Shown: positions 3,835 to 45,017, counted from the first letter of the stretch. The stretch: DNA of 45,069 nucleotides from a virus (IMGVR_UViG_3300029607_000014), one strand, 5' to 3'. Made by a program: numbers and translations. Notes: a model not told the origin generated them from the sequence alone.

Positions 3835-4124
3835 AATACAGAAAGAAGCCGGTCGTAATTGATGCAGTACAGTGGACTGGTACAAATCATCGAGAAATGT
3901 TCGATTTTCTGACGGACTATCAGTGTACAGACCAGTACATGTCGGCAGAAGGTAAGAATTTCTATATTGACCATTGGAAGGTTCTGGGTGGATTGGTTAT
4001 TAAGACACTAGAGGGCGAACATCTGGCGAATATTGGTGATTATATCATCCGCGGTGTACACGGTGAATTTTATCCGTGTAAGCCAGATATATTCAAGGAA
4101 ACCTATGAGGAGGTGGAAGCATGA
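3831..4124 (+). CDS. conserved phage hypothetical protein (97 aa)
   Basis: KKPVVIDAVQW...GDYIIRGVHGEFYPCKPDIFKETYEEV, a pattern common in phage early regions; ATGA coupling. Confidence 0.65.
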   Translation: MKYRKKPVVIDAVQWTGTNHREMFDFLTDYQCTDQYMSAEGKNFYIDHWKVLGGLVIKTLEGEHLANIGDYIIRGVHGEFYPCKPDIFKETYEEVEA

Positions 4125-4222
4125 TTACATTCTTATTAGGATTCACCATTGGAACCATATTTGGAATGGTTGGTCTTGCATGTGTGGCGATCATGTACGA
4201 TAAGCACCACCCAGACGATTAG
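4121..4222 (+). CDS. 33-aa single-pass membrane peptide (not in ORF track)
   Basis: ATGA coupling to upstream stop; MITFLLGFTIGTIFGMVGLACVAIMYDKHHPDD. Confidence 0.45.
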   Translation: MITFLLGFTIGTIFGMVGLACVAIMYDKHHPDD

Positions 4223-4235
4223 AAAGGAGAACGGT

Positions 4236-4577
4236 ATGCTGACAAGGAATAAAAAGCTGAAAGACTACGGTATTCCGGCAGAGGACATTGAAAAATTAAA
4301 TACGATACTAAAAGACTTTCCAGCAAAGTACGGATACCTGCTTTCCAGTGCTGCCTTGTCAGCTTGCCCGAAGAACACGGTGATAGCGGATATGGTTATC
4401 GAGAATATCCTACACCGGAAAAGTTACAGGAAAATCAGCAAAGAAAGATATATCCCGATGAATCCGAAAGACTTCTACGGATACAGACGCAAGACCGTCG
4501 CTGTACTGTATGAGAGAATGCGGTTGTTGGGAGTGTGGGGAGGAATAAGAGGGCAAAATGGAAAAAAGTTTGTTTAG
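4236..4577 (+). CDS. small sigma-region-4/ArpU-RinA-like putative transcription activator, paralog of 7160..7456
   Basis: GAAAGGAG RBS before ATG 4236; shares LxDYG(I/V)PxxDI...IPxxxxDFYGY(R/K)R with 7160..7456. Confidence 0.55.
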   Translation: MLTRNKKLKDYGIPAEDIEKLNTILKDFPAKYGYLLSSAALSACPKNTVIADMVIENILHRKSYRKISKERYIPMNPKDFYGYRRKTVAVLYERMRLLGVWGGIRGQNGKKFV

Positions 4578-4989
4578 CAGCAATTCCGATCAATGGGCTA
4601 CACCTAAATATATTTTCGATGAATTAAACAAAGAGTTTGATTTCACACTAGACCCATGTGCGGACGCAAAAAACCATAAATGCGAGAAATTTTTTACTAA
4701 AAATGAAAATGGTCTTATACAGGATTGGGGAGGAATGCGAGTATTTTGCAACCCACCCTACGGAAGAGAAATATATCAATGGGTTGAAAAAAGCTATCAG
4801 GAAGGACATAAAGAGAATACGCTCGTTGTTTTACTAGTTCCGGCAAGGACAGACACGAAGTGGTTTCAAGATTTTGTATATCACAGATCTGAGATTAGAT
4901 TTTTAAGAGGAAGGTTAAAATTCGGAGACAGTAAGAATAGCGCACCGTTTCCGTCAATGATAGTAATTTTTAGAGGACCTAAAATGTAA
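4558..4989 (+). CDS. phage-type DNA N6-adenine methyltransferase, orphan
   Basis: QWATPKYIFDEL..DPCA...VFCNPPYG (NPPY catalytic motif) ...LVPARTDTKWF. Confidence 0.85.
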   Translation: MEKSLFSSNSDQWATPKYIFDELNKEFDFTLDPCADAKNHKCEKFFTKNENGLIQDWGGMRVFCNPPYGREIYQWVEKSYQEGHKENTLVVLLVPARTDTKWFQDFVYHRSEIRFLRGRLKFGDSKNSAPFPSMIVIFRGPKM

Positions 4990-7512: not shown

Positions 7513-7579
7513 AGTATATATAACTATAACTATGCTAGGGTGTTTTAATTCAGAAAGGATATGATTGGATGTTGATAGG

Positions 7580-9130
7580 ATGGCAAACGAGGAAAATTTA
7601 AAACCATTTACAAGCAATCAAAGCCGTGAGGAAGCCGTGAGAAACGGACAAAAAGGCGGTATTGCATCTGGATATTCTAGGCGACAAAAAAAAGCCCTTT
7701 CTGATTATGTAAAAATTATAGCCGAAAGTCCTGCATCAAGTACTGCAAAAAAGAAACTTGCAAAAATGGGGATTGCTGACGAAGACGCAAATAACATGGC
7801 AGTCGTAGCAACTTCTCTGTATAAAAAAGCGGCAGATGGAAATATACAGGCTATCGAAAAATGGGAGCAGCTAACAGCAGCTTCAAAAGACGATGATGAA
7901 AAATATGAACTTCCTGCCAGAGTACTTGGCAAGGCATTCGTGGATATTAACCGACAGATTAAGCCTAATATTGAATATGTATTTGAGGGCGGTCGAGGTG
8001 GTCTGAAATCTTCATTTGTGGCCTTTAAGATTGTTGAACTTATCAAGAATAATCCTCAGATGCACGCCTGCATTACAAGACAGGTGGCCGGTACTCTGAA
8101 AGATTCTGTATACGCTAACATGAAATGGGCTATCAACGAACTTGGATTGACGGAAGAATTTGAATGCAAGGTGTCACCACTTGAAATCAAGTATATTAAG
8201 ACTGGACAGACAATATACTTCCGCGGTCTGGACGATGAAACCAAACTGAAATCTATTAAGCCAGAGTTTGGATACATTGGAATCCTCTGGAAAGAGGAAA
8301 AAGATCAAATGAAGGGAGACGCTCAGGAGCGTTCTGTTAATCAGTCAGTGCTTCGTGGTGGCGATGAATCCTATGATTTTTCATCATATAACCCACCAAA
8401 ATCAAAATCAAACTGGGTAAACAGGATCAAGCTCACGCCTAACCCGAAAAGAGTTATCCATCATTCGAGTTATCTGGAAGCTCCGGCGGAGTGGCTCGGA
8501 CAGAAGTTTATTGACGATGCAGCGCATCTGAAAGAAATCAATCCAGAAGCCTATGAGCATGAATACCTGGGTGTTCCAAATGGTGACGGTGGAAACGTAT
8601 TTGAATATCTGGAAATCAGAGATATTACAGATGAAGAGATCAGTCACATGGACAAAATATTTCAGGGGTGTGACTGGGGATTTTTTCCTGATCCGTATGC
8701 TTTTATTCGTTTGTATTACAATCATAACACTGAAAAGATATATCTCATTGATGAAATTTGCGAAAATAAATGGAGCAATAGGAAATCAGCAGACGAGATT
8801 CTAAAAAGAAAATATGATGATTATACTATTACTTGCGATTCTGCTGAACCTAAATCAATCAATGATTATAGAGATTTTGGACTCCCGGCAAGGGGCGCAA
8901 TAAAAGGGCCTGGGAGTGTGGAATATTCTATGAAATGGCTTCAAACAAGAACTATTGTTATTGACCCTAAGAGAACGCCTAATGCTTATAAAGAGTTTTC
9001 GGAATACGAATACGAAAGAGATAAAGACGGAAACGTTATAAGCGGATATCCTGATGAGAATAACCATTTAATCGATGCCTGTAGATATGCAACAGAGTCG
9101 CTATGGAGGAGAAGAGGAAACAATGCATAA
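7580..9130 (+). CDS. terL: terminase large subunit (PBSX/XtmB-like) with ~115-aa basic N-terminal extension
   Basis: Walker-A-like FEGGRGGLKSS, nuclease-half motifs (CDWGFFPDP, DSAEP, HLIDACRYA); TTG at 7565 is an alternative start. Confidence 0.9.
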   Translation: MANEENLKPFTSNQSREEAVRNGQKGGIASGYSRRQKKALSDYVKIIAESPASSTAKKKLAKMGIADEDANNMAVVATSLYKKAADGNIQAIEKWEQLTAASKDDDEKYELPARVLGKAFVDINRQIKPNIEYVFEGGRGGLKSSFVAFKIVELIKNNPQMHACITRQVAGTLKDSVYANMKWAINELGLTEEFECKVSPLEIKYIKTGQTIYFRGLDDETKLKSIKPEFGYIGILWKEEKDQMKGDAQERSVNQSVLRGGDESYDFSSYNPPKSKSNWVNRIKLTPNPKRVIHHSSYLEAPAEWLGQKFIDDAAHLKEINPEAYEHEYLGVPNGDGGNVFEYLEIRDITDEEISHMDKIFQGCDWGFFPDPYAFIRLYYNHNTEKIYLIDEICENKWSNRKSADEILKRKYDDYTITCDSAEPKSINDYRDFGLPARGAIKGPGSVEYSMKWLQTRTIVIDPKRTPNAYKEFSEYEYERDKDGNVISGYPDENNHLIDACRYATESLWRRRGNNA

Positions 9131-9459
9131 TGAGTAAAATAGGAATAGAACTACCGAAAGAGTATTCGGATAGATTTGACAAATTGCGTCAGAATCGAGT
9201 AGAAGTCAGCTTTTACAAATATGGCACAGCAGCAGACAACTTTGGAATGAAATTAGTAGATGCACTTGAATCACACGATATGTGCATTAAAAAATATAAA
9301 GAAACTGGAAACACAGAATATCTTTGCGATGCAGCAAATTATCTCATGTTTGAATTTATGTATCCACAGATTCCGAATGCATTTTTCAAAGCAACAGATA
9401 GCGGAGAGAGTGCCGGAGTTGCCGGGACGCCAATAAATCAGCTAAAAGAAAAATGGTGA
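9130..9459 (+). CDS. hypothetical protein (109 aa) between terminase and portal
   Basis: TAATG coupling with terL stop. Confidence 0.55.
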   Translation: MSKIGIELPKEYSDRFDKLRQNRVEVSFYKYGTAADNFGMKLVDALESHDMCIKKYKETGNTEYLCDAANYLMFEFMYPQIPNAFFKATDSGESAGVAGTPINQLKEKW

Positions 9460-9463
9460 CTAA

Positions 9464-10909
9464 ATGGGACTTATAACAACACTAAAAAGGTGGTTTAACA
9501 TGATATTCAAAAAACAAGCCGAAGAGGATTTTAATATCCAGGCGGCAGAATTCCCAGAAATGGAATCACTGATTAACCGGTGCGCGAACATTTACAGGGG
9601 AGTGCCGGAATGGCTGGATGAAAAGAATAATATCAAGACGATTAATTTTGCGAAATCCGTCTGCTCAGAGACAGCTCGGCTTGCAACATTGGCGATCGGC
9701 ATTCAGATAGATGGCTCTGCAAGGGCAGCATGGTTGCAGGAGCAGATTGACAAGGTATATTTTCAAATCCGGCACTGGGTAGAATATGGCTGTGCTTACG
9801 GAACAGTGTTCATTAAGCCAAACGGTGAGAGCCTTGACATATTCACTCCGGCAGATGTGATGATTGTGGATTACGACAATCAGGAGATCAAAGGGATTAT
9901 ATTCAAGGATTCTTATACTGTTGGACGAAAATACTACACAAGGCTCGAATATCATAGATTTGTTGAGACTACAATAGATGGTGTGACAACTTATCCGTAT
10001 TATGTTTCTAACAGAGCCTATGTATCAAAATCTCCTCAAAGCATCGGAGACAAGATTGACCTTAAACAGACAAAGTGGGCTGACCTAATGGCAGACACTC
10101 CGCCGATTATTAAGGCGAACGGTGAGAAGCTGGACGGGCCTCTGTACGGAGTACTGCGGACACCGCAGGCAAATAACGTGGATATTAGTACGCCACTGGG
10201 ACTTCCGATATTTGCCGAAGCCATTGAGGAGTTAAAAGACCTCGACATTGCATATAGCAGGAACGCAAAAGAAATTCTTGATTCTAAGCGAACTGTTCTG
10301 GCAGATGACAGATTGTTGATGCCGAGTGGCTCACCTGTCTCCGCTATGACACCACAGGCAATGGAACATAGATGCTTAGAAATGAGCTTACCAGATTATG
10401 TAAAGAATGTATTCGGACAGGACGAAAAAGAGTTTTATCAAGAAATCAATCCGGTCCTCAACACAGATACCCGTATAAGCGGCATAAACGCCCTCCTTGG
10501 ACAGATTGGATATAAGGTCGGATTCTCTAATGGATATTTTGTATTTAATGAAAAAAGCGGAATACAAACAGCCACAGAGGTAGAAGCAGGACAACAGAGG
10601 TCTGTACAATTTATCAAGGACGTAAGAGACCAATTAGACAAAAGCATAAAACAAGTAGTATATGCGTTGAGCGTATATGCAGATTTATATGGATTGGCTC
10701 CAGTCGGTGCATATAAAGTTCAGTGCAACTTTGGCGAAATGGCATATTCTTATGAGAGAGACCGAGACAATTGGTGGAAGTATCGCTTACAGGGTGACTG
10801 TCCTCCTTGGATGTATTATGTCAAATTCGAAAATATGACAGAATCCGAAGCGAAAGCAATGGTCAAAGAAGCCCAGCCAGACGAACCAAAACTGTTTGGA
10901 GATGAATAG
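9464..10909 (+). CDS. portal protein
   Basis: 481 aa, immediately after terminase and before the MuF-like gene; acidic C-terminus. Confidence 0.75.
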   Translation: MGLITTLKRWFNMIFKKQAEEDFNIQAAEFPEMESLINRCANIYRGVPEWLDEKNNIKTINFAKSVCSETARLATLAIGIQIDGSARAAWLQEQIDKVYFQIRHWVEYGCAYGTVFIKPNGESLDIFTPADVMIVDYDNQEIKGIIFKDSYTVGRKYYTRLEYHRFVETTIDGVTTYPYYVSNRAYVSKSPQSIGDKIDLKQTKWADLMADTPPIIKANGEKLDGPLYGVLRTPQANNVDISTPLGLPIFAEAIEELKDLDIAYSRNAKEILDSKRTVLADDRLLMPSGSPVSAMTPQAMEHRCLEMSLPDYVKNVFGQDEKEFYQEINPVLNTDTRISGINALLGQIGYKVGFSNGYFVFNEKSGIQTATEVEAGQQRSVQFIKDVRDQLDKSIKQVVYALSVYADLYGLAPVGAYKVQCNFGEMAYSYERDRDNWWKYRLQGDCPPWMYYVKFENMTESEAKAMVKEAQPDEPKLFGDE

Positions 10910-10911
10910 TT

Positions 10912-12198
10912 ATGTTAAGCCCAGAATATTTACGGCAAATTACAGAGGGCAGTGAACAGATAGCAGAAGAACTGCATCAGTACATCATCTCTGAGATTGT
11001 ATCTCGAATGATGACAAGAATTGGCAGAGGTGAGGACTATATTCTGACCAATGCCGATGCGTGGAGAATCAGAACACTACAGGAATCTGGTGAGCTGCTA
11101 GAGGACATTCTGGCAGAATTATCCAGATACACCAAACGTGAACAGCAGGAACTCCTTGAGGCGTTTGAGGATGCTGGAATTACTGCGATGAACTACGATG
11201 ACAAGGTATACAAGGAGGCAGGACTTAGCCCTGCACCACTCGAACAGTCACCAGCTATGATAAGACTCATGGAGCGGAATATGCTTGCGACTATGGGCGA
11301 GTGGAAGAACTTTACACGAACAACTGCAAGTGCCGCTCAGAGGCTCTATATTGAGCAATGCGACCTTGCCTATAATCATGTAATGACTGGGGCAGTTGGA
11401 TATACGCAAGCCATCAAAGAGGCAGTTAATAACGTTGTGAGTAATGGCGTTACTGTCATATATCCATCTGGCAGAAAAGACACGATCGAAACAGCAGTAG
11501 CACGTTCTGTCAGAACCGGAGTCGCACAGGCGTGTGCTGATATTCAGTTAGCAAGAATGAAAGAAATGGGATACGGTTTAGTATTGACATCGGCGCACAT
11601 AGGAAGTCGCCCAAGTCATGAAGTATGGCAAGGGCAGGTATTTTCCATAGACTGGAAAAAATTAAAAGAAATCAAGCCGGAGTTCTTTCAGGAACGAGAT
11701 ACACCAGAATATCGTAGAATGCTGGAGCGAAAAGCAAGCCACTATCCAGATTTTATTGAAAACTGTCATTATGGCGAAGCTGATGGAATATGTGGAGTAA
11801 ATTGCAGACATCATTTTTCAGTTTGGGCGGAAGGAATGCCGAATCCCTACGCAGAACTATCGGCACAGGATAAAGCCAACAAAGGCGAACAATACGAAAA
11901 AGAGCAAAAACAACGTACTTACGAACGCAGAATCCGCAAAACAAAAAGAGAGGTTCTTGGACTGCAAGCAGGAGTTGACAATGCACCGAACGAAAAGGCG
12001 AAATTCGCATTACAACAAGACCTCGACCGGAAGTCTTATCTTTTGCAGAAACAAAATGCTGCATACAAGGCTTACTGCAAGCAGAACGACCTGAGGGAAC
12101 TGCAAGACCGGCTCATGATAGCGAAGTGGAACCGCCAGAATGCCGCAAAAGCCAGAGGAGCGGCGAAGAGATATAAAACAGCAAAGGGGATTGACTGA
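10912..12198 (+). CDS. head-morphogenesis / minor capsid protein (Mu F / SPP1 gp7-like)
   Basis: Position after portal; GVNCRHHF motif typical of the MuF-like C-terminal core; basic coiled-coil tail. Confidence 0.75.
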   Translation: MLSPEYLRQITEGSEQIAEELHQYIISEIVSRMMTRIGRGEDYILTNADAWRIRTLQESGELLEDILAELSRYTKREQQELLEAFEDAGITAMNYDDKVYKEAGLSPAPLEQSPAMIRLMERNMLATMGEWKNFTRTTASAAQRLYIEQCDLAYNHVMTGAVGYTQAIKEAVNNVVSNGVTVIYPSGRKDTIETAVARSVRTGVAQACADIQLARMKEMGYGLVLTSAHIGSRPSHEVWQGQVFSIDWKKLKEIKPEFFQERDTPEYRRMLERKASHYPDFIENCHYGEADGICGVNCRHHFSVWAEGMPNPYAELSAQDKANKGEQYEKEQKQRTYERRIRKTKREVLGLQAGVDNAPNEKAKFALQQDLDRKSYLLQKQNAAYKAYCKQNDLRELQDRLMIAKWNRQNAAKARGAAKRYKTAKGID

Positions 12199-12578
12199 TG
12201 GATAGATGGGAATATTACAATCCGAATCCTGCCGGTAATCGAGTCGGAGATTGCGTTGTCCGAGCAATATGCAAAGCAACTGGTCTTGACTGGGAAACGG
12301 TATTTGCCGGATTAATGATACAGGCGTGCGCTCTGTCAGATATGCCAAGCGCAAATTATGTCTGGGGAGCGTACCTCTATAAACGTGGGTACAGACGCAA
12401 ACTGATTGAACAATCAGAACGATATATCTATACAGTCAATGATTTTTGCACAGACCATCCGACAGGCACGTACATTCTCTGCATAGATGGTCATGTGGTG
12501 ACAGTACGGGATGGAAAATATTACGATACATGGGATTCCGGAAATGAAGTCCCGGTATATTACTGGGAAAAGGAGTAG
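12198..12578 (+). CDS. hypothetical protein with Cys/His/Asp triad-like arrangement (possible papain-fold enzyme)
   Basis: NRVGDCVVRAI ... CIDGHVVTV..GKYYDTWDSG; TGATG coupling to MuF gene. Confidence 0.5.
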   Translation: MDRWEYYNPNPAGNRVGDCVVRAICKATGLDWETVFAGLMIQACALSDMPSANYVWGAYLYKRGYRRKLIEQSERYIYTVNDFCTDHPTGTYILCIDGHVVTVRDGKYYDTWDSGNEVPVYYWEKE

Positions 12579-12582
12579 CTAA

Positions 12583-12888
12583 ATGAGCATATCAGAATTT
12601 GTACAGATTTTCCTTTCTATCTGCGGAGGGGTGTCTATTGTCGGAGGGGCGGCAGCCGTAATCTTTAAATGGATTACCCCGGCATTCCGACTTAATAAGC
12701 GAGTAGAGACGCTGGAAGAACATGATAGACGAGATTATGAAAGTCTTCGGAGAATCGCAGAACGAGATTCATTAATTCTGGAAGTGTTGTCGACCATGCT
12801 GGATAGTCAGATTAGTGGGAATAATGTAGAAGAATTAAAAAAAACAAAACAGAAGCTTACAAATTATCTTGCGCAGAATCAACGTTAG
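12583..12888 (+). CDS. N-terminally membrane-anchored coiled-coil protein (101 aa)
   Basis: FVQIFLSICGGVSIVGGAAAVIF TM segment; AAAGGAG RBS. Confidence 0.55.
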   Translation: MSISEFVQIFLSICGGVSIVGGAAAVIFKWITPAFRLNKRVETLEEHDRRDYESLRRIAERDSLILEVLSTMLDSQISGNNVEELKKTKQKLTNYLAQNQR

Positions 12889-12908
12889 CATTAATAAGGG
12901 GTATGCTC

Positions 12909-13109
12909 ATGAAATTATATGTGTTCACAAAGAAAGATATAGACAGGTTCTTGATAGAGTGTAATTTCACACCGGACGAAGAAAGATTGTTCCGGTTGAG
13001 GTGTAAGGAATATACACTCGAATACTGCGCTGAGCAGATGAACGTGAGTATATCCACGGCGAAACGATTAAGCCGGAGGGTGAACAATAAAATAATTAAA
13101 GTGTGCTGA
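12909..13109 (+). CDS. sigma-70 region-4-like HTH protein (66 aa)
   Basis: TPDEERLFRLRCKEYTLEYCAEQMNVSISTAKRLSRRVNNKI resembles sigma r4/LuxR-type HTH. Confidence 0.55.
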   Translation: MKLYVFTKKDIDRFLIECNFTPDEERLFRLRCKEYTLEYCAEQMNVSISTAKRLSRRVNNKIIKVC

Positions 13110-13130
13110 TACTTTTTGGATACTAATTAG

Positions 13131-13163
13131 AGCCAGAAACGACCTGTTTCCGGTTCTTTTTTT
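13131..13163 (+). terminator. rho-independent terminator
   Basis: ccagaaac-gacct-gtttccgg stem (one mismatch) followed by a T-rich tract (ttcttttttt). Confidence 0.65.
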
Positions 13164-13197
13164 ATGTAAAAATATAATCAGAAAGGCGGTGTATAAG

Positions 13198-13668
13198 ATG
13201 GCATTATATAACAATCCTTATCAATATAGTTTTGGCGTTCCTGGGCAGATGAACCAGTTTCAGCAACAGCCTGTCCAGATGCCGGCTCAATCAGTACAGC
13301 AACCACAGCAAAATAATAGCGGTATCCTGTGGGTATCCGGCGAAGTCGGCGCAAAATCCTATCTGGTAGCACCTGGGACAAGTGTTTTGCTAATGGATTC
13401 AGAATCAGAGAAATTTTATATAAAATCCACAGATGTATCCGGTATGCCACAGCCACTGCGGACATTTGAATACCACGAGGTGGGCTCTCAGATGCCGCCT
13501 AAACAGCCTGTTCAGAACATGGACAGTAAATATGTTACTCGACAGGAATACGATGATTTGAAAGGCAAATACGAAGCTATTATAAACCGATTAAATTCAT
13601 TTTCTGAACCTGTTAGGGCTAATACCGTACAGGAATCAGCAGTCAAGGGAGGAAACGCAGATGAGTAA
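13198..13668 (+). CDS. Gln/Pro-rich hypothetical protein (156 aa)
   Basis: GAAAGG RBS; QFQQQPVQMPAQSVQQPQQ low-complexity N-terminus, then GILWVSGEVGAKSYLVAPGTSVLLMD core. Confidence 0.6.
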   Translation: MALYNNPYQYSFGVPGQMNQFQQQPVQMPAQSVQQPQQNNSGILWVSGEVGAKSYLVAPGTSVLLMDSESEKFYIKSTDVSGMPQPLRTFEYHEVGSQMPPKQPVQNMDSKYVTRQEYDDLKGKYEAIINRLNSFSEPVRANTVQESAVKGGNADE

Positions 13669-13882
13669 TCCATTATTTAACGCCCTCGGTGGCGGGATGC
13701 CGCAGGGAAATGGACCAATGCAGATGATACAGCAGTTCATGCAGTTCAAACAGAATTTTAAGGGAGATCCGAAAGCAGAAGTTGAGAAAATGTTACAGTC
13801 TGGGAAGATTTCTCAGCAGCAACTTAATCAGGTCCAACAGATGGCAGGGCAGTTTCAACACATGTTGAAAGGAATGAAATAG
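13661..13882 (+). CDS. Gln/Met-rich small hypothetical protein (73 aa)
   Basis: GGGAGGA RBS; overlaps upstream stop. Confidence 0.55.
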   Translation: MSNPLFNALGGGMPQGNGPMQMIQQFMQFKQNFKGDPKAEVEKMLQSGKISQQQLNQVQQMAGQFQHMLKGMK

Positions 13883-13933
13883 TACATTACAATCTGGCCA
13901 GATTGATGTAAATACAATAAAGGAGATTATATT

Positions 13934-14713
13934 ATGGATGGAAATTATAGCTTAGCAGATATTGCCGCTGCTACTGGAAATGGTAGAAATAATGACGGCA
14001 TGTTTGGTGGAGATGGTAGCTGGTGGATTATTGTTTTATTCATTTTTGCTTTCTTCGGATGGGGAAACAACGGCTGGGGAAATAATGGAAACGGCGGCGG
14101 ATATGCAGCCACGGCAGCTACTCAGGCGGATATTCAGAGAGGATTCGACAATTCTGCAGTGATCAGCAAGCTTGACGGAATCAATAGCGGCCTGTGCGAT
14201 GGCTTCTATGCCATGAATAATGGTATGCTTACCGGATTCAACGGAATCAACACAAACATCATGCAGACTGGTTTCGGCATTCAGCAGGCTATTAACGCTG
14301 ACACTGTAGCAAATATGCAGAATACCAATGCACTCCAGGCACAGCTTGCGAACTGTTGCTGCGAAACCAGAGAAGCAATTCAGGGCGTAAACTACAATAT
14401 GGCGCAGAACACCTGTGCATTACAGAACACCATGAACAGCAACACAAGAGATATCATTGACAGCCAGAACGCTGGGACAAGAGCCATTCTCGACTATCTT
14501 TGCAATGAAAAGATTTCTAACCTGCAGGCTGAAAATAACGACCTCAGACGTGCTGCTTCTCAGGACCGTCAGAGCGCACTTCTCACAACTGCAATGGCTT
14601 CACAGACACAGCAGCTCATTAATGCGATTAATCCGGCACCGATTCCGGCATATCAGGTTCCTAATCCGAACACATTTTACGGATGCGGATGCAACACTGG
14701 ATGTAATTGCTGA
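13934..14713 (+). CDS. single-pass membrane protein with GWGNNG repeats, N/Q-rich body and Cys-rich C-terminus
   Basis: AAAGGAG RBS; WWIIVLFIFAFFGWGNNGWGNNGNGGG; ANCCCE; ...YGCGCNTGCNC end. Confidence 0.65.
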   Translation: MDGNYSLADIAAATGNGRNNDGMFGGDGSWWIIVLFIFAFFGWGNNGWGNNGNGGGYAATAATQADIQRGFDNSAVISKLDGINSGLCDGFYAMNNGMLTGFNGINTNIMQTGFGIQQAINADTVANMQNTNALQAQLANCCCETREAIQGVNYNMAQNTCALQNTMNSNTRDIIDSQNAGTRAILDYLCNEKISNLQAENNDLRRAASQDRQSALLTTAMASQTQQLINAINPAPIPAYQVPNPNTFYGCGCNTGCNC

Positions 14714-14776
14714 TAACTTCATATCGAGAGTATCTTTCGATTGATTCGGATGTCGGCTTATGCCGTATTACACAGA

Positions 14777-14801
14777 GGGCAGGCTGAGACCTGTCCTTTT
14801 G
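14777..14801 (+). terminator. rho-independent terminator
   Basis: gggcagg-ctgaga-cctgtcc (one G-U) followed by tttt. Confidence 0.6.
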
Positions 14802-14822
14802 TGATATGAAAGGAGTATTTTT

Positions 14823-15245
14823 ATGGCAGAATTTACAAATGTAGCTGCTCAGACTGTAGCAGCAAATGGAAACGTAGTATTTTCAAGCACAGCAGTTAAA
14901 GGTTCTAACTGTATTCAGCACAGAGAGGGAAGTGGAATTATTACGCTGAGAGGACTGACTAATCAGTGCAAAGCGAGATTCTTCGTGGATTTTTCTGGCA
15001 ATATCGCAATTCCAACAGGCGGTACTGTCGGAGCTATTTCTCTGGCTATTGCAATCTCTGGTGAGCCGGTTCTTTCTTCACAGATGATTTCCACACCGGC
15101 AGCAGTAGACCAGTATAATAATGTGTCCTCTGGCATTTATATTGATGTACCTCGTGGATGTTGCGTTAACATCGCAGTAGAGAATACAAGCAATCAGGCT
15201 GTTTCTGTTGCAAATGCAAACATTGTTGTGACCAGAGAAGCGTAG
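14823..15245 (+). CDS. 140-aa beta-rich hypothetical protein (possible C1q/BclA-C-terminal-like jelly roll)
   Basis: GAAAGGAG RBS; alternating hydrophobic beta pattern ...FFVDFSGNIAIPTGGTVGAISLAIAISGEPV...CCVNIAVENTS...ANIVVTREA. Confidence 0.6.
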   Translation: MAEFTNVAAQTVAANGNVVFSSTAVKGSNCIQHREGSGIITLRGLTNQCKARFFVDFSGNIAIPTGGTVGAISLAIAISGEPVLSSQMISTPAAVDQYNNVSSGIYIDVPRGCCVNIAVENTSNQAVSVANANIVVTREA

Positions 15246-15256
15246 GAGGTGTGATT

Positions 15257-15811
15257 ATGAGAGATATTAAAGACTTATGCGCAAGAATCGAAGATGAACT
15301 TTCCAAAATCGCTGATAATGGACTGACCACCGGAAATCTGGAAATGACATACAAACTGATTGATATGTACAAAGATATCAAGAACACTCAGTACTGGGAT
15401 AAGAAAGTAGAGTACTACAACACTGTCCTTGATGAAATGCGTGGCGGATACAATGACGATTACAGCGAGCGGGGAAGAAAGCGGGACAGCATGGGGAGAT
15501 ACAGCGCAAATGATGGCAGAATGATGCCGGATTACGACAGGGGCAATTCTTATGCCAGACGTGGTGAACATTATGTCAGAGGGCATTACAGTCGCTCTGA
15601 TGGGCGAGATGCTTACGATGACTACATGACGCAGAAGCAAAGCTATCGTTCCGGCAAGTCTGAAGACTGCAAGAGGAAGATGCTTGCCGCTCTGGAAGAA
15701 CATCTGGACGAACTTACAACAGAAATGAGCGATATGTCCAAGGACGCAGAGTGCCGGGAAGAACGTGATCTTGTCAAGAGATACGTGGAAAAACTTCGCG
15801 ATATGCTCTAA
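15257..15811 (+). CDS. hypothetical protein with helical ends and an R/D/Y/G/S-rich disordered core (184 aa)
   Basis: AGGAGG 7 nt before ATG 15257; RGRKRDSMGRYSANDGRMMPDYDRGNSYARRGEHYVRGHYSRSDGRDAYDDY. Confidence 0.6.
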   Translation: MRDIKDLCARIEDELSKIADNGLTTGNLEMTYKLIDMYKDIKNTQYWDKKVEYYNTVLDEMRGGYNDDYSERGRKRDSMGRYSANDGRMMPDYDRGNSYARRGEHYVRGHYSRSDGRDAYDDYMTQKQSYRSGKSEDCKRKMLAALEEHLDELTTEMSDMSKDAECREERDLVKRYVEKLRDML

Positions 15812-15817
15812 AAACGC

Positions 15818-15858
15818 AAAAAGTGGTAGAGAGGTAGTTAAAAGAAATCTGTTATAAT
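15818..15858 (+). promoter_or_regulatory. late promoter P-late2: AAAAGTGGTAGAGAGGTA-N16-TATAAT (TGt extended -10)
   Basis: 16/18 identity with motif at 7472..7489, same spacing to the -10. Confidence 0.6.
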
Positions 15859-15943
15859 GTAATTGTGCAGCAGGAAGCACAAGTAAAACGGTTGTTTTGA
15901 CATTTTCGTTTTAATCCTCCTTTCTTTAATTTTTGTAGCTGGT

Positions 15944-15992
15944 GCGCACGCTTTAACGGAAAGTTAAGCAGGTTCGAGTCCTGCCGTGCGTA
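15944..15992 (+). ncRNA. truncated tRNA-like module (acceptor stem + T arm + one hairpin; no D arm)
   Basis: gcgcacg/cgtgcgt 7-bp acceptor (one G-U), gcagg-TTCGAGT-cctgc T arm, ttaac-ggaaa-gttaa hairpin. Confidence 0.45.
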
Positions 15993-16141
15993 TTTGTCAT
16001 CTGGCACGCAAGATGGCTCACCTCCTTGATTAAGGTTTTTGTTATTCATACTTTTCTTTTAAAAAAGAAATAAATATCCGAAACAACTCGTGGTAGGCAT
16101 AACACGTTAAATACCTTGCTAACCCGGGAATCCGGGTTATG

Positions 16142-16214
16142 TGGAATGTAGCTCAGTAGGAAGAGCGGAGATGCTGAATTCTTGACGTCAGAGGTTCAAG
16201 TCCTCTCATTCCAT
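16142..16214 (+). tRNA. tRNA-like gene, 73 nt, canonical acceptor/D/T arms but poorly paired anticodon stem (possible pseudo-tRNA; anticodon unassignable)
   Basis: tggaatg/cattcca acceptor; gctc-agtaggaa-gagc D arm; agagg-TTCAAGT-cctct T arm; anticodon stem gagat/tcttg has only 2 pairs. Confidence 0.5.
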
Positions 16215-16290
16215 TACCCTGCCAGTGGTCTAACTGGCTTAATCCATTTACCTGCGGCGGCAGGTCAATAAACACGACCAGGAGGATGTT

Positions 16291-16923
16291 ATGCAGAAAC
16301 TTATTGACACATTAAAATCATTTGGAATCGAAATCCCGGAAGATAAACAGGCAGATGTGAAGAAAGCACTCTCTGAGCATTACAAAAATGCTAAGGAAGT
16401 AGCAAAAACCCTGTCGAAAGTCGAGGGTGAACGTGATGACTGGAAAGAACGTGCTGAAGCAGCAGAAGAGACCCTGAAAGGTTTTGACGGTATCGACCCG
16501 GCAAATGTTAAAACCGAGTTAGAGACTTGGAAACAGAAAGCGGCAGATGCAGAGAAAGAATTCAACGCAAAAATCTATGACCGTGATTTCTCAGATGCAC
16601 TTAAAACAGCACTCGATGATGTTAAATTTTCCAGTGAGGCTGCAAAGAAATCAGTCATGGCAGACATCAAAGAAGCTGGATTAAAACTGAAAGACGGTAA
16701 AATCCTTGGACTGAACGATCTGATCGAGCAGATGAAGCAGTCTGACGCATCCGCTTTTGTGGATGAATCTCAGCAGCAGGCTCAGCAGAATCAGGCGAGA
16801 TTTACAACACATGTTGGACAGCAGCAGACACCGGGAAACATGACAAAGAAAGATATCGAAGCAATCAAAGACCCGTCCGAGAGACAGGCTGCAATTGCTC
16901 AGAATATCCAGTTATTCCAGTGA
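16291..16923 (+). CDS. scaffolding protein (phage GP20-like)
   Basis: 210 aa, highly charged helical (K/E/A/D), Q-rich tail, directly upstream of major capsid gene. Confidence 0.7.
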   Translation: MQKLIDTLKSFGIEIPEDKQADVKKALSEHYKNAKEVAKTLSKVEGERDDWKERAEAAEETLKGFDGIDPANVKTELETWKQKAADAEKEFNAKIYDRDFSDALKTALDDVKFSSEAAKKSVMADIKEAGLKLKDGKILGLNDLIEQMKQSDASAFVDESQQQAQQNQARFTTHVGQQQTPGNMTKKDIEAIKDPSERQAAIAQNIQLFQ

Positions 16924-17003: not shown

Positions 17004-18173
17004 ATGGCAGCAAAAGCTAATCTTATTATGACTAATGATATTCAGGTAAAGGCACGTGAGATTGACTTTGTTACCAGATTCGAAAGAAACTGGCAGCACT
17101 TACGTGATATTCTGGGCATCATGAGACCTATCAAAAAACAGCCGGGTGCTGTACTGAAATCTAAGTACGCAGAGGGTACTTTGCAGAGCGGAAATGTTGG
17201 TGAGGGCGAGGAAATCCCTTACAGCAAATTCACTGTAAAAGAAAAGAACTATGCGGAAATGACTATCGAGAAGTACGCAAAGGCTGTATCTATCGAAGCA
17301 ATCAAGGATCACGGTTACGAGAACGCTGTTCAGATGACTGATGATGAATTTCTTTTCCAACTTCAGACTGACGTTACCGGCAGATTCTATGATTATCTGA
17401 AAACCGGTACGCTTACTTCCACAGAAACAACATTCCAGATGGCTCTGGCAATGGCTAAAGGTCGTGTTGAAAACAAATTCAAACAGATGCACAGAAATGT
17501 GACTGGTGTTGTTGGATTTGTGAACATTCTGGACGTATATGAATATCTCGGAGCGGCCGAGATTACTATTCAGAACCAGTTCGGATTCCAGTATATGAAG
17601 GACTTTATGGGATTCAATACAATCTTCCTGTTATCCGACAGCGAAATCCCGAGAGGACAGGTTATCGCTACTCCTGTTGAGAACATCGTACTTTACTATG
17701 TTGACCCGAACGAATCTGACTTCGCAAGAGCAGGTCTTGTATACACTGTGTCTGGCGAGACAAATCTGATCGGATTCCATACTCAGGGCAACTACCACAC
17801 AGCAGTATCCGAAGCGTTTGCGGTCATGGGTCTTACTCTTTTCGCAGAGTACATTGACGCAATCGCAGTAATTACCATTGACGAGACACCTACACTCGGT
17901 ACTCTGACAGTAAATTCTGTAGCAGGTTCAGCGACCGGAGATACAAAAATCACTGTAAATCCGGCTAAGGAAAATGCCGGCAATGTGTATAAATACAAAG
18001 TTGCAGCAGAAGCAGTAACTGTCGGATATGGACAGAATCTCAGAAACTGGACTACTTGGGACGGAAAAGCTGATATTAAGGCGGCAACCGGACAGAAGAT
18101 CACAGTGGTTGAGTGCGACGGAACATACAAAGCACTGAACGCCGGAAGTGCAAGCGTAACAGCGAAATCATAA
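17004..18173 (+). CDS. major capsid protein with C-terminal Ig-like extension
   Basis: 389 aa after scaffold; C-terminal TLGTLTVNSVAGSATGDTKITVNP...KITVVECDG resembles a Big_2-type domain. Confidence 0.75.
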   Translation: MAAKANLIMTNDIQVKAREIDFVTRFERNWQHLRDILGIMRPIKKQPGAVLKSKYAEGTLQSGNVGEGEEIPYSKFTVKEKNYAEMTIEKYAKAVSIEAIKDHGYENAVQMTDDEFLFQLQTDVTGRFYDYLKTGTLTSTETTFQMALAMAKGRVENKFKQMHRNVTGVVGFVNILDVYEYLGAAEITIQNQFGFQYMKDFMGFNTIFLLSDSEIPRGQVIATPVENIVLYYVDPNESDFARAGLVYTVSGETNLIGFHTQGNYHTAVSEAFAVMGLTLFAEYIDAIAVITIDETPTLGTLTVNSVAGSATGDTKITVNPAKENAGNVYKYKVAAEAVTVGYGQNLRNWTTWDGKADIKAATGQKITVVECDGTYKALNAGSASVTAKS

Positions 18174-18191: not shown

Positions 18192-18686
18192 ATGGCTTAT
18201 GCAGATTATGAATTTTACACAACTTCATATTTCGGTTCAGTTGCGCCAGAAGCCGACTTCCCACGACTGGCGGAAAGAGCCAGTGATTTCGTGGACACAA
18301 TGACATTTGACAGACTGGTGGATGGACTGCCAACAAACGAACGCTCACAGAAGCGTATCAAAAAGGCGGTCTGTTCATTGGCTGAATTAATGTATCAGAT
18401 TGAGCTTGCTGAAAAGAATGCAATCAATCAGGCGTCAGCAAATGTGACCGACATAAATGCCGGTGGCAAATCAACAGGCATTGTAACATCTGTATCATCC
18501 GGCAGTGAATCCATCTCTTACGCAACACCTCAGCAGATTGGAGCGAGTGCAAAAGAGTGGAGTGCAGTGTATGCCGTCGCGGGAGATGCACAAAAAACGA
18601 ACGACTTGCTCTTAAAGACAGCTTTACCACTTCTGATGGGAGTAAGGACGGATAATGGAATACCAGTATTATATGCAGGAGTGTGA
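18192..18686 (+). CDS. head-tail connector (gp6-like adaptor)
   Basis: AGGAGG before ATG 18192; first gene after capsid; YADYEFYTTSYFG N-terminus typical of adaptor proteins. Confidence 0.6.
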   Translation: MAYADYEFYTTSYFGSVAPEADFPRLAERASDFVDTMTFDRLVDGLPTNERSQKRIKKAVCSLAELMYQIELAEKNAINQASANVTDINAGGKSTGIVTSVSSGSESISYATPQQIGASAKEWSAVYAVAGDAQKTNDLLLKTALPLLMGVRTDNGIPVLYAGV

Positions 18687-18690
18687 TTAT

Positions 18691-18960
18691 ATGGACATTT
18701 CAACATTAGGCTCATGTATAGCAATCGTTATGATCTGCTACATTGTAGGAATGGGCTGCAAAGCATCAAAGAGAATCTCTGACGAATGGATTCCAGTAAT
18801 CATGGCGGTTATTGGTGGAATTCTCGGAGCAGTCGGAATGGGAGTTATTCCAGACTTTCCGGCAACGGACTATATCACGGCAGTTGCGGTCGGCATGTTT
18901 AATGGATTGTCGGCTACTGGTGTGAATCAGGTTATTAAGCAGACAGTGCAGAAAGAATAA
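18691..18960 (+). CDS. holin-like small membrane protein (Hol44/phage_holin_5-like, 89 aa)
   Basis: Hydrophobic segments IAIVMICYIVGMG, IPVIMAVIGGILGAVGMGV, AVAVGMFNGLSATG; basic C-terminus KQTVQKE. Confidence 0.55.
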   Translation: MDISTLGSCIAIVMICYIVGMGCKASKRISDEWIPVIMAVIGGILGAVGMGVIPDFPATDYITAVAVGMFNGLSATGVNQVIKQTVQKE

Positions 18961-31443: not shown

Positions 31444-31482
31444 AAATTGGTACAGAGATGCCTTAACGCTAAATGCTATAAT
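31444..31482 (+). promoter_or_regulatory. late promoter P-late3 (degenerate): AAATTGGTACAGAGATG-N16-TATAAT (TGc extended -10)
   Basis: Aligns to P-late2 with one inserted nt; same 16-nt spacing. Confidence 0.45.
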
Positions 31483-31521: not shown

Positions 31522-32949
31522 ATGACAACTGAACAAAAGAACGTCCTGAGAAAGATTATTTATGCAGTCGAAACCGGCGGACAGGTTTATGGACAGCAGG
31601 ATTATTCAGACTTCACAGAAGCCTACACCAATTCTTCTGAAGAACACGCAATTACAATCGGTGCCGGACAGTGGTACGCAACCGAAGCACAAACACTTTT
31701 GAAACGGATTCATGATGCAGATACGGAAGCGTGGGACCGGTTAGACAATATTGGATTATGGGAGCAGGTGCAGGAGGCAGATTGGTCTTGTTTTAATATT
31801 TCCAGAAACAGCCAGTTTGCAAATTTAATCGTACGGCTCATATCGTCCAAAACAGGCGTTAAATGCCAAGATAGCCTTATGGATGAACAATTAGCCACCT
31901 ATGCAGATGAAGCCCTTAAACAGGGCGTTACTGACGCCAGAGCGAAAGCTATGTGTGTGAACTTTAGACACCAAGGTGGACAGGGAGCAGTAACGAGGAT
32001 TCTGGCAAAGACTCAGAAACCATATACATTGGACAATCTCTATGCGGCTTGCCAGACGGACACAGGGAACCAAGTCGGGGCATATAAGGACAGGCAAAGA
32101 TTTGTTTATAACGCATTAAAAACATATTTTCCAGAAAGCGAGGAAACAGGTATGAACGCAATTGACAAATTAATCCAGATCGCAAAGAATGAAGTTGGAT
32201 ATCTTGAAAAGGCAAGCAATAGCCAACTTGATAGCAAAACTGCAAATGCCGGAGAAAATAATTACACAAAATATTGGCGAGATATTAAGCCGGATTATCA
32301 GGGACAGCCGTGGTGTGCAGCGTTTGTTTCGTGGTGCATGATGAAAGCATTCGGCTTAGACACAGCAAAGAAACTTTTAAAACATTGGCCATACGTTTAC
32401 TGCCCGACAATGGCGGATTTATTTACTTTGAACAGCAATCCGAAAACTGGTGATATTGTAATTTTCAAACATAATGGAGAATTTACGCACACTGGAATCG
32501 TAATCAAAGTGTCAGGAGATCGGTTCTGGACAGTCGAAGGAAATACTTCTGGTGGCTCTACAATTATTGCAAATGGCGGTGGTGTGTGCCAAAAAAGTTA
32601 CTACAACAGCAACCTCCCGGGAACAAAATTCTGCACTCCAAACTACAATTTAGTTAAAAATACAACATCAGTTTCAGACTCAGATACAGTCAAAAAGCAG
32701 AACACAAGAGCCTACATTGCACAGATAAAAAAGGACACAAAATGTTATACAAAATCAAACAAAAATAGCCTATCTAAACTGTTTCCGAAGTTGAAAAAAG
32801 GTGCAGTTGTAGAGGTGATGAAGTACACAGAAACTGACAGTTCCGGGCTGAAATGGTACTTCATCCGCATCCCACATCCGACAGAAGGGTTTGTTTTTGA
32901 ATTTGTCCCAAAAGGAACATTTACCAGAATTTCAGAAATTCATAAATAA
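31522..32949 (+). CDS. endolysin: unassigned N-terminal domain + CHAP amidase/peptidase + C-terminal SH3-like binding region
   Basis: CHAP signature QPWCAAFVSWC ... GDIVIF..NGEFTHTGIVI ... WTVEGNTS. Confidence 0.8.
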   Translation: MTTEQKNVLRKIIYAVETGGQVYGQQDYSDFTEAYTNSSEEHAITIGAGQWYATEAQTLLKRIHDADTEAWDRLDNIGLWEQVQEADWSCFNISRNSQFANLIVRLISSKTGVKCQDSLMDEQLATYADEALKQGVTDARAKAMCVNFRHQGGQGAVTRILAKTQKPYTLDNLYAACQTDTGNQVGAYKDRQRFVYNALKTYFPESEETGMNAIDKLIQIAKNEVGYLEKASNSQLDSKTANAGENNYTKYWRDIKPDYQGQPWCAAFVSWCMMKAFGLDTAKKLLKHWPYVYCPTMADLFTLNSNPKTGDIVIFKHNGEFTHTGIVIKVSGDRFWTVEGNTSGGSTIIANGGGVCQKSYYNSNLPGTKFCTPNYNLVKNTTSVSDSDTVKKQNTRAYIAQIKKDTKCYTKSNKNSLSKLFPKLKKGAVVEVMKYTETDSSGLKWYFIRIPHPTEGFVFEFVPKGTFTRISEIHK

Positions 32950-33029: not shown

Positions 33030-33300
33030 GTTGGACACACGTTGGTCACAAATAAGAAAAAATATTTCCTAATTAAATATCCTCTAAAGTACTGTATTTA
33101 AAGGACTTTTTGACATTTGCATAGTTCTAATTTAATGCCCTAATTAAATACAATTAGAATAATGAAAATGAAATGAGTGAATTCCTTGCAAAATCGCTGA
33201 GAATGTTGATTTTACAAGGGTTTCACGCGTTTTTATGTTCTGAATTGTGATGAATAAAATTGATAAAATAAGATTCCGTTAGTCACAGTTAGTCACAAAT
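33030..33300. repeat. attP-like region with arm-type repeats
   Basis: Tandem GTTGGACACA-c-GTTGGTCACA (33030..33050) and GTTAGTCACA x2 (33278..33297); CCTAATTAAATA x2 (33068, 33139); inverted ttctaatt/aattagaa. Confidence 0.5.
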
Positions 33301-34460: not shown

Positions 34461-34631
34461 TTTTATTCCCTCTTTCTGTAGCTGTATTTTAGGTATAAAA
34501 ATAACAGCCGAACAAACTTTCTGACTTGCCCGACTGCTCCGAAGATGATACAATATGTTTTGCCAGAATATTACATTTCTTCGGAGATGTATAAACGCCA
34601 CCTCGGTACGCTAATGCCGGGGTGGTTTTTA

Positions 34632-34931: not shown

Positions 34932-35160
34932 GATAAACACCCTCCCGATATGTTTTCACCACGTTTCGCACTTTTTATGCGGATTATGTATTTTGTACCG
35001 CTGATTTTGCAATATTATGTAAAGTAAGGTTATTCGTGGTATTTTTATTTTATCATTTTAAGAGCATATTGTAAAGATTTAGAATGAAATAGAGTGATTT
35101 AGATGAAAAAGAAATGTTTTTTTCTGTAAAATAGTGAGAGTTCATGTGTATCATTGGCAG

Positions 35161-35189
35161 TTGCCAAGAGTTGGAATAGGTGGTATAAT
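35161..35189 (+). promoter_or_regulatory. near-consensus sigma-A promoter
   Basis: TTGCCA-17 nt-TATAAT with TGg extended -10. Confidence 0.55.
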
Positions 35190-44843: not shown

Positions 44844-45017
44844 GTTACACTTAGTTACATTTAGTTACACCCCAAGATACACCTCAAACCCTTATAAATA
44901 CTGTATTTTTTACTTAGTGTAACTAATGTAACTAATATTTTACTATAAAGTATATTTTAATAATTATATAAAAAGGTAATTATAGGAAAAATTAAATACT
45001 TATGTTACACGTTACAC
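44844..45017. repeat. iteron array GTTACA(C/T): 3 direct, 2 inverted, 2 direct, around an AT-rich spacer (candidate ori)
   Basis: 44844, 44854, 44864 (10-bp phase); inverted 44917, 44926; 45004, 45011 (= 34, 41 at window start). Confidence 0.6.

Follow-up and report, generated by a model that had tools for sequence, protein, structure and literature searches.

What interrupts the head genes of the virus IMGVR_UViG_3300029607_000014, and does the interrupting DNA belong to the head? The window, by which we mean the whole stretch of 45,069 nucleotides (nt) analysed here, is a complete, circularly permuted genome of a temperate phage of 44,970 bp, with a perfect 99-nt terminal direct repeat (1-99 is identical to 44971-45069). 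A sequence-only reading of this DNA had pointed to a break in the head-gene order between the MuF and scaffold genes, and this was confirmed: eight open reading frames (ORFs) and a tRNA-Gln gene lie between the two and interrupt the order by about 4.1 kb (12198-16290; Table 1). The segment 12198-15811 is a copy of a conserved phage-borne cassette that spreads horizontally. It is made up of genes that we call g68, g126, A, B, C, D or its alternative D', and E, and we are confident that it is a mobile accessory cassette and not capsid machinery.

The recurrence of the gene set carries this conclusion. Iterated hidden Markov model searches over the ORFs of 92 sources found C in all 92, A in 83, E in 72, g68 in 68 and g126 in 56, most frequently in the order g68-g126-A-B-C-D-E. 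Fifty-four loci extend for 3 kb or more on each side of the cassette and form the fully flanked set; in these A was present throughout, g68 in 47, g126 in 37, and E or a substitute for it in 45; D (35 loci) and the alternative D' (18 loci) were mutually exclusive, and one locus had neither. In the same set a B of the type seen in the window was present in all 29 loci with g126 upstream and in none of the other 25. The eighth inserted gene, g101, was seen in only 3 loci and is a lineage-specific passenger. The sequence-only reading had proposed a five-gene island, A to E; the insert stands, but its extent does not, as g126 and g68 travel with the other genes, and what had looked like a group of oddities is a conserved system. 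The compositions it had described were reproduced, with A being Q/P-rich, B Q/M-rich, C carrying a GWGNNG segment and a Cys-rich tail, D all-beta and E R/D/Y-rich.

These counts also dispose of the simplest alternative, in which there is no system at all and unrelated small ORFs have piled up at a permissive site beside incidental hairpins. That the MuF/scaffold junction carries other small genes elsewhere (in the Flavonifractor phage Chenonceau), and that most of the products have no function or known domain, would be expected in such a case; however, content and order are kept across the fully flanked loci and several phyla, the alignments of C, D, g126 and E contain invariant residues, and C has thousands of homologues, so that this explanation is refuted in practice and we give it hardly any credence.

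The judgement that the products are unlike head, decoration or protease proteins was borne out, since no match of A to E to a scaffold, decoration or protease family was obtained in Pfam, NCBIfam or PHROG, and all five fall into PHROG families of unknown function (E values from 5e-27 to 1e-63). When all eight island proteins were compared with Pfam, NCBIfam and PADLOC, nothing usable was obtained except weak sigma-region-4 signals for g68, and PADLOC returned only a ZorA coiled coil at chance level (E = 0.007) and AbiC (E = 0.63). Searches of profile libraries, the PDB and the literature gave no described system matching the composition of the cassette; no experimental data were located in the literature for the Clostridium perfringens phages that bear it, and phiCP39O and CP26F were not among the tblastn matches of the C homologue.

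Some copies hold further genes. In three loci (L004, L005 and L009) and 14 others, a protein of about 110 amino acids (aa) with an HExxH motif comes after E and often ends the cassette; it is not present in the window, and it gave a weak match to DUF2268/SprT-like metallopeptidases (E = 9e-4). In Dulem virus 33 (L007) an annotated endonuclease gene lies on the minus strand between B and C (9178-9729) and may be a homing endonuclease inside the cassette. Two other assignments were tried and received no support from Pfam, namely the alternative last gene of some cassettes as ferritin-like, and the small coiled-coil membrane genes beside the cassette as XhlA-like.

The same gene set was found at several different genome positions. 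A tblastn search with C gave 45 phage records, and the 91 other copies that were examined (11 phage records and 80 loci from genomes or metagenome-assembled genomes, MAGs) had phage genes among their neighbours wherever these were scanned and a clearly cellular context in none. Only 12-13 of the 54 fully flanked loci, about a quarter, lie between MuF and scaffold, as do the copies that run from the minor capsid gene to the scaffold in Dulem virus 35 and MT835516. Most of the remaining copies come behind the endolysin or ahead of the integrase. In bajarodcaudo virus 5 and Dulem virus 33 the cassette is preceded by the holin and endolysin (in Dulem virus 33 it also adjoins the integrase), in Dulem virus 36 by the receptor-binding protein and in Dulem virus 39 by the integrase; C. 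perfringens phages have it behind an antirepressor, in a region that looks early, and crAss-like phages directly behind the holin and lysis-regulator genes. When Pfam was run on the two ORFs on either side, the upstream neighbours included MuF (9), amidase/GH25/CHAP endolysins (10) and a holin, and the downstream neighbours scaffold genes (10), tyrosine integrases (10) and serine recombinases (3). Other ORFs beside the cassette included AgrB-like (PF04647) ones just upstream in four loci (among L012-L091), metallophosphoesterases in four others and, in one locus, a downstream ORF with a Spo0A_C domain.

Phages with related head genes complete the comparison. Blautia phage Montmirail has a single 40-aa ORF at the MuF/scaffold junction (L094 8218-8354) and Dorea phage DO134P1 two small ORFs, and neither has the cassette there; in Dulem virus 33, where the cassette follows the lysis genes, the head module is likewise without it. 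These phages, together with the presence of the same gene set at other genome positions, support the reading of the region as an insert. In Chenonceau the junction is filled by about 2.4 kb of other small genes, among them a helix-turn-helix (HTH) gene and an Arc-like repressor (L093 3902-6310). Because the junction is nearly empty in Montmirail and DO134P1 and filled by other genes in Chenonceau, we regard it as an insertion hot spot. A scan of one genome per species gave 175 relatives of C, most of them in Lachnospiraceae, Oscillospiraceae, Ruminococcus and other Clostridia, with further hosts in Collinsella, Erysipelotrichaceae and Bacilli MAGs and one relative in a 557-kb Prevotella scaffold. 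Carriers that can be cultivated include a prophage of Lachnospira intestinalis CLA-AA-H89B (L012) and the C. perfringens phages HMD-PC1, XP41-N3 and 17DYC.

At the core of the cassette is C, which has an acidic N-terminal tail, a hydrophobic helix at about residues 30-43, a Gly/Trp/Asn segment of the GWGNNG type (GWGNNGWGNNG), long N/Q-rich helices and a Cys-rich C-terminus (GCGCNTGCNC). In an alignment that includes a crAss-like homologue the invariant positions are Trp31, the Trp-Gly after the hydrophobic helix, CCC at 141-143, Ser-Gln at 209-210, PxPAY and a C-terminal CxC, and because of them we take the likeness within the family as homology and not merely shared composition. The family comprises at least 8,000 clusters at 90% identity and 2,136 at 50%, none of which carries a Pfam domain or an informative name. 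Across 90 homologues the flank on the N-terminal side of the helix holds on average 1.6 Asp/Glu vs 0.14 on the C-terminal side, with no Lys/Arg bias, and the median number of cysteines is 12. The AlphaFold2 model of C consists of the transmembrane helix and long helices only, and none of the alignments of A, B, C, D' and g126 had a significant match when compared as profiles with PDB sequences. In the crAss-like phage cr109_1 (L011 4734-5717) the C homologue contains two in-frame stops under translation table 11, consistent with stop-codon recoding in that phage.

Two known families offer a comparison for C. Bitopic coiled-coil proteins are encoded beside the lysis genes of phages, as in the i-spanin Rz and in XhlA of PBSX, and C resembles them in that a single transmembrane helix is succeeded by long helices bearing conserved cysteines, and in the frequent position of its gene after holin and endolysin, including in crAss-like phages. 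It differs from them in lacking sequence similarity and in being always accompanied by A and usually by D and E. Moreover, its hosts are mostly monoderm Clostridia, in which spanins are not needed, cr109_1 has a separate Rz/LysB-like gene, and no lipoprotein partner was seen on reading the translations, for which no lipobox search was run; we do not class C as a spanin. The second family, YjcZ (TIGR01732), had been named by the sequence-only reading as part of a likeness to spore-coat and exosporium proteins. C shares with it a Gly-rich segment around a hydrophobic helix, and cysteines; however, it is about five times longer (259 aa vs about 40-50 aa), has a conserved helical domain and gave no NCBIfam match at E values up to 1.

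The only part of that likeness that stood is the fold of D. The structural check proposed for the island, AlphaFold followed by Foldseek, was informative for D and gave a low-confidence model for C. The AlphaFold2 model of D (predicted local distance difference test, pLDDT, 91; predicted TM-score 0.86) is all-beta, and as modelled D is a compact jelly roll superposable on C1q, TNF and the C-terminal domain (CTD) of BclA. Its best Foldseek match in the PDB was the F-BclA CTD (9h38; E = 1.5e-6, TM-score 0.73-0.76), alongside ExsFA (7r1m), BxpB (8d02) and the ExsF complex (9h3d); for these exosporium proteins as a group the TM-score was 0.73-0.77, the root-mean-square deviation about 3 Å, the E value 1e-6 to 1e-4 and the identity 11-14%. 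EDA and 4-1BBL of the TNF family, and C1q, scored nearly as well. In total 79 PDB chains matched at E values of 1e-3 or lower, and the best 50 of these 79 were almost all BclA-CTD, ExsF/BxpB, TNF-family or C1q structures, with a few phage fibre or spike domains (cyanophage A-1(L), 8ke9; phi812 spike, 9eul). Matches in BFVD were uncharacterised gut-phage proteins, some of them named BclA. D is probably a trimer. No Pfam match, GXX repeats or exosporium leader were found in the 140-aa sequence, and the endospore-appendage papers describing the D-matching structures do not mention phages. D' is unrelated to D: hhalign detected no relationship between them, and D' is Cys-rich, with three conserved N-terminal cysteines, appears beta-rich by eye and gave no match to Ena/DUF3992 or any other Pfam family.

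Could the cassette then be directed at spores? In such an account it would mimic or modify the spore coat or exosporium of sporulating Clostridia. It would contain a GerE-like regulator and Cys-rich and Tyr-rich proteins of the coat type, D would correspond to ExsFA/BxpB and g126 to Tgl or YabG. D does resemble ExsFA/BxpB in being a stand-alone domain (about 140-170 aa) of the same fold without a signal peptide, the top structural matches of D are F-BclA, ExsFA and BxpB, the cassette proteins lack signal peptides and are rich in Cys, Tyr and Gln as coat proteins are, and the hosts are mostly Clostridia. Against this, the identity to exosporium proteins is low and TNF and C1q score nearly the same, D has no collagen-like stalk and no exosporium leader, it is replaced by the unrelated Cys-rich D' in a third of cassettes, and no YjcZ, GerQ, Cot or Tgl family match was obtained. 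The cassette also occurs in the 557-kb Prevotella scaffold, Collinsella, Bacilli MAGs and crAss-like phages, and hosts of these kinds are not known to sporulate. A spore-specific role is contradicted by the copies in the Prevotella scaffold and the crAss-like phages, and we consider a spore-directed module very unlikely.

The matches of D to fibre and spike domains bear on another alternative, a virion accessory module, in which D or D' would form trimers that decorate the capsid or tail or act as an adhesin, the other products would be packaged or ejected and C would be a membrane-inserting ejection protein. About a quarter of the loci do lie inside the head module, C1q/TNF-like domains occur at the tips of phage fibres (8ke9 and 9eul above), the exchange of D for D' resembles the turnover of decoration and receptor-binding modules, and the other copies, where scanned, lie beside phage genes. 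Yet the same cassette is carried by unrelated architectures, from siphovirus-like temperate phages to crAss-like ones, and copies sit outside the structural modules, after lysis genes, after the integrase or in the early-looking region of the C. perfringens phages. In addition, D lacks a stalk or anchor at its N-terminus, virions do not usually contain a strongly hydrophobic transmembrane protein and three low-complexity ones, and PHROG gives no structural annotation. We therefore hold a virion module to be improbable, although less so than spore mimicry.

The remaining proteins suggest how the cassette might work. In g126 (31 homologues aligned) Asp18-Cys19, Arg22 and His99 are invariant and Asp110 is about 90% conserved, which places Cys, His and Asp in this order within about 125 aa and makes g126 a candidate papain-fold Cys-His-Asp enzyme. 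Enzymes of this fold include C39 double-glycine peptidases, transglutaminases and Gln deamidases, and the spacing of Cys19, His99 and Asp110 resembles that of C39 domains; g126 differs from all of them in having no profile match to any such family in Pfam or the PDB. B, in which 20% of residues are Gln, carries the motif MxNPLFNxxGG...LLQSGxxSQQQLNQ and gave repeated sub-threshold matches to the RAD23 XPC-binding (STI1-like) domain (E = 0.07-1.5). A has a Q/P/Y-rich low-complexity N-terminus, a conserved middle that looks by eye like a small beta domain and a C-terminal helix, with no match in Pfam or the PDB. E has two terminal stretches that are not of low complexity, helical by eye, around an R/D/Y/G-rich centre, and conserved RRDSxGRYS and GxYS motifs; the gene upstream of the C homologue in cr109_1 (4096-4701) encodes an R/D/Y/E-rich tail resembling E. 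Signal-peptide-like N-termini were essentially missing from these families (A 0/82, B 0/48, E 0/73, g126 0/57, D 1/53). Finally g68, an HTH protein that resembles sigma-70 in region 4 only and had matches below the cut-offs to TIGR02937 (E = 9e-5) and Sigma70_r4 (E = 0.007), is a candidate regulator of the cassette.

When is the cassette expressed? The sequence-only reading had placed a terminator on each side of A-B-C and a repeated late-promoter motif after the island. Both hairpins proved real in folding tests and have the sequence features of intrinsic (Rho-independent) terminators, a stable GC-rich predicted hairpin with an immediate U tract. The first, between g68 and A, folds at -17.7 kcal/mol (z = -3.75; 0 of 200 shuffles equal) and was listed at -12.3 kcal/mol plus TTTTTTAT in a purpose-written hairpin and T-tract scan; the second, after C, gives -39 kcal/mol for the 108-nt intergenic stretch (z = -4.7; 0 of 200 shuffles) and is the weaker terminator of the two because it has just four consecutive U. 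The purpose-written scan listed both hairpins and a generic consensus terminator scan neither. A hairpin with a T tract was found upstream of A in 41 of 80 loci, and directly after C in 48 of 88 (34 of 54 C-D junctions and 14 of 34 C-D' junctions), vs 10 of 81 inside A to C. Many of the post-C hairpins fold at -15 to -22 kcal/mol, and since the element is kept by position while its stem sequences are unrelated between loci, it fits a functional attenuator separating A-B-C from D-E. The first hairpin might in addition be a binding site for the adjacent HTH protein g68, a suggestion prompted by the recurrence of a similar element with a related loop, ACGAnCTGT, in closer relatives of the window (L030, L036, L048, L052 and L057).

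The promoter claim fared less well. The proposed motif, taken as a 40-mer, is not repeated in the window even when 3 mismatches are allowed; instead, the site carries a perfect extended -10 element, TGTTATAAT, ahead of the tRNA and scaffold genes. TGnTATAAT occurs six times in the window vs 2.4 expected, four of them on the plus strand, and such elements precede gene blocks at 22677, 31474 and 35181, the CHAP endolysin having its own element (TGCTATAAT) at 31474. Three of the four plus-strand elements (15820-15858, 31445-31482 and 35152-35189) have TGGTA or TTGGCA 21 nt upstream of the TG. A standard -35 would not lie so far away, and the sequence may be an upstream promoter element peculiar to the phage. 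Between the T tract of the first hairpin and the start codon of A there are only 31 nt, in which no sigma-70-like promoter was detected.

This arrangement had been read as that of a moron or host-directed cargo. The moron or accessory-cassette concept comes from lambdoid phages such as HK97, and the likeness is considerable, as the cassette is extra DNA between genes that are adjacent in relatives, is present in some relatives and absent from others, is bounded by terminator-like hairpins with a promoter-like element after it and sits at permissive lysis and integrase junctions. It differs in comprising seven to eight genes kept as a unit across host phyla, instead of one or two, in having no evident promoter of its own upstream of A and in sharing the composition of its host phage: the island has a GC content of 0.43-0.47 and a third-position GC content of 0.32-0.53, inside the range of the flanking head genes, and is not foreign to the surrounding phage genes in nucleotide composition. 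The cargo insert thus held up, whereas a foreign composition did not. As crAss-like phages are regarded as virulent, their carriage of the cassette also argues against a classical prophage-expressed moron. Taken only as an insert, the cassette is a variant of this known theme, and an ordinary accessory role is possible.

An expression programme of the lysogen is nevertheless what the first-ranked of the rival explanations assumes, ahead of virion decoration or ejection and of spore mimicry. Here the cassette would be prophage-expressed cargo for lysogenic conversion, superinfection exclusion or anti-phage defence, with g68 as regulator and C as membrane effector. The phage of the window carries an integrase and is temperate; among 66 loci at least 13 have an integrase or recombinase as the next downstream gene, endolysins are common upstream (together the classical moron site), terminators flank A-B-C on both sides, and a dedicated HTH gene with a membrane protein is what many exclusion systems contain. 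On the other hand, PADLOC gave no match beyond the chance-level ZorA coiled coil, no nuclease, ATPase or other typical defence enzyme is present, the composition is that of the host phage, the cassette always has the orientation of the late genes, the window leaves no space for a promoter between the first hairpin and A, and crAss-like phages carry it. We regard this explanation as unlikely.

The best explanation overall, and one that we consider moderately probable, is a mobile accessory module, transcribed late, whose products assemble on the cytoplasmic side of the host membrane; that it forms a late-expressed, cytoplasm-facing membrane assembly is, as a claim of its own, put forward tentatively. 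The cassette would be transcribed with the late genes, and A-B-C probably by read-through of the first hairpin from the late head operon, because of the short distance between T tract and start codon; the position of the cassette on the late-gene strand and its presence in crAss-like phages support late transcription. The terminator after C would then attenuate D-E relative to A-B-C. C is predicted to span the cytoplasmic membrane with its single helix, the short acidic tail outside and the long Cys-rich, N/Q-rich helical domain in the cytoplasm, an orientation suggested by the acidic tail, as in YidC-inserted coat proteins, and by the cytoplasmic nature of its partners. The domain of C would oligomerise and recruit the low-complexity proteins A, B and E, which lack signal peptides, and the probably trimeric D, and g126 would process or cross-link a partner, most likely B, given their perfect co-occurrence in the fully flanked loci. 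The product would be a membrane-anchored protein assembly that acts on the host envelope late in infection and is not part of the virion. Our best guess at its role is that it modulates lysis or egress, or else the state of the membrane immediately beforehand, a weak preference that we derive from the adjacency to lysis genes in Firmicutes and crAss-like phages, from the occurrence in both crAss-like and temperate carriers and from the independence of virion architecture; the link to lysis or egress is itself doubtful.

Several points weigh against this scheme. The U tract of the second hairpin is short and termination there may fail, and the extended -10 element before the scaffold is found in only 5 of 15 related loci. 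The topology of C is argued from charge statistics and the absence of signal peptides, and its model is of low confidence (pLDDT 52). For g126 no Pfam or PDB sequence-profile match to any peptidase or transglutaminase family was obtained, and its association with B may merely mark a sub-lineage. Lysis genes may lie nearby only because the late operon ends there, at a site that tolerates insertions in general, and a virion role keeps some weight because about a quarter of the copies lie among the head genes and folds like that of D are found in phage fibres and decoration-like proteins.

A bolder version of the membrane-assembly reading would make the cassette a phage system of a kind not previously recognised, distributed across host phyla, that lays down a coat-like protein layer on the inner face of the membrane late in infection, cross-linked through cysteine and possibly glutamine. 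C would be the anchor, A, B and E the matrix, D or its analogue D' the C1q/TNF-like trimer, g126 a dedicated papain-fold enzyme for processing or cross-linking and g68 a sigma-like regulator with region 4 only. Such a layer would be a viral analogue of spore-coat or exosporium assembly with a purpose new to phage biology; we think it a long shot.

Table 1. Coordinates of the cassette, its flanks and the related tRNA slots (window positions unless a locus is given)
Feature	Coordinates	Strand	Description and match
TerL	7565-9130		
Portal	9464-10909		
MuF/Phage_min_cap2	10912-12198		Pfam, E 6e-80
g126	12198-12578	+	Inserted ORF; 126 aa; start overlaps MuF stop; phrog_3754, E 4e-37; candidate enzyme
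g101	12583-12888	+	Inserted ORF; N-terminal hydrophobic helix and coiled-coil tail
g68	12903-13109	+	Inserted ORF; 68-aa helix-turn-helix resembling sigma-70 region 4 only; phrog_1190 sigma factor, E 2e-6
Hairpin 1 with U7	13129-13166 (hairpin about 13129-13157)	+	Terminator-like, between g68 and A; 11-bp stem, one internal mismatch
A	13198-13668	+	Inserted ORF; phrog_21718, E 2e-38
B	13661-13882	+	Inserted ORF; 73-aa Q/M-rich helical protein; 8-nt overlap with A; phrog_22984, E 5e-27
C	13934-14713	+	Inserted ORF; predicted single-pass membrane protein, 259 aa, core gene; phrog_16490, E 1e-57
Hairpin 2 with UUUUG	14765-14806 (core 14777-14801)	+	Putative terminator/attenuator after C; 10-bp core, with GGGCAGG/CCTGTCC, then TTTTG
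D	14823-15245	+	Inserted ORF; stand-alone C1q/TNF-like beta jelly roll (modelled), 140 aa, conserved GCC motif; phrog_20016
E	15257-15811	+	Inserted ORF; phrog_28802, E 1e-63
Extended -10 promoter-like element	15850-15858	+	Perfect; upstream of tRNA and scaffold
tRNA-like structure	15937-16000	+	7-bp acceptor-like stem around a short hairpin
tRNA-Gln(CTG)	16141-16215	+	ARAGORN and Rfam, 43.7 bits; slot between cassette and scaffold
Scaffold	16291-16923		PF06810, E 7e-23
Capsid (major capsid protein)	17004-18173		
Holin (Hol44)	18655-18960	+	PF16079, E 2e-23
CHAP endolysin	31522-32949	+	
Integrase	33279-34601	-	
tRNA in scaffold-upstream slot, L005	12633-12706		
tRNA in scaffold-upstream slot, L031	10387-10462		
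tRNA in scaffold-upstream slot, L043	9882-9955		
tRNA in scaffold-upstream slot, L051	9934-10009		
tRNA in scaffold-upstream slot, L055	9759-9834		
tRNA in scaffold-upstream slot, L058	2222-2295		
tRNA in scaffold-upstream slot, L065	9815-9889		

Between the cassette and the scaffold gene lies a non-coding stretch of 480 nt after 15811 that contains the tRNA-Gln gene, the sole Rfam match in 12800-16400 at E values up to 1. The tRNA slot upstream of the scaffold is shared by many related phages and its identity varies, from Gln-CTG in the window to Ile-TAT, Gly-TCC, Lys-TTT and Thr-TGT elsewhere. Gln codons in the window are almost all CAG (19 CAG and 0 CAA in C, 18 and 0 in the scaffold gene, 15 and 1 in the capsid gene). 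A second structure, upstream of the tRNA, has an acceptor-like stem and a perfect T-arm (GCAGGTTCGAGTCCTGC) with no D arm; it was called neither by ARAGORN, even with relaxed settings, nor by Rfam, and may be a tRNA remnant or tRNA-like element. The sole recognisable holin of the window is encoded 12.5 kb away from the CHAP endolysin, amid the genes for head-tail connectors, and Dulem virus 35 has an annotated holin at the equivalent position.

As for what the finding means for these phages, the C family has no Pfam entry, informative name or solved relative, and A, D and E, which travel with it, are similarly abundant. A module that stays whole both in temperate phages (of Clostridia, Bacilli, Actinobacteria and Bacteroidota) and in crAss-like ones likely serves a general step in the life of gut phages that is missing from current models. 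If this is right, seven hypothetical proteins per genome would become a single testable system and a marker that annotators can recognise, and the MuF/scaffold and lysis/integrase junctions would be the landing sites of the cassette. Should it turn out that the module assists lysis or egress, or serves exclusion, this would be relevant to the dynamics of gut phages and their hosts and to the engineering of Clostridia phages.

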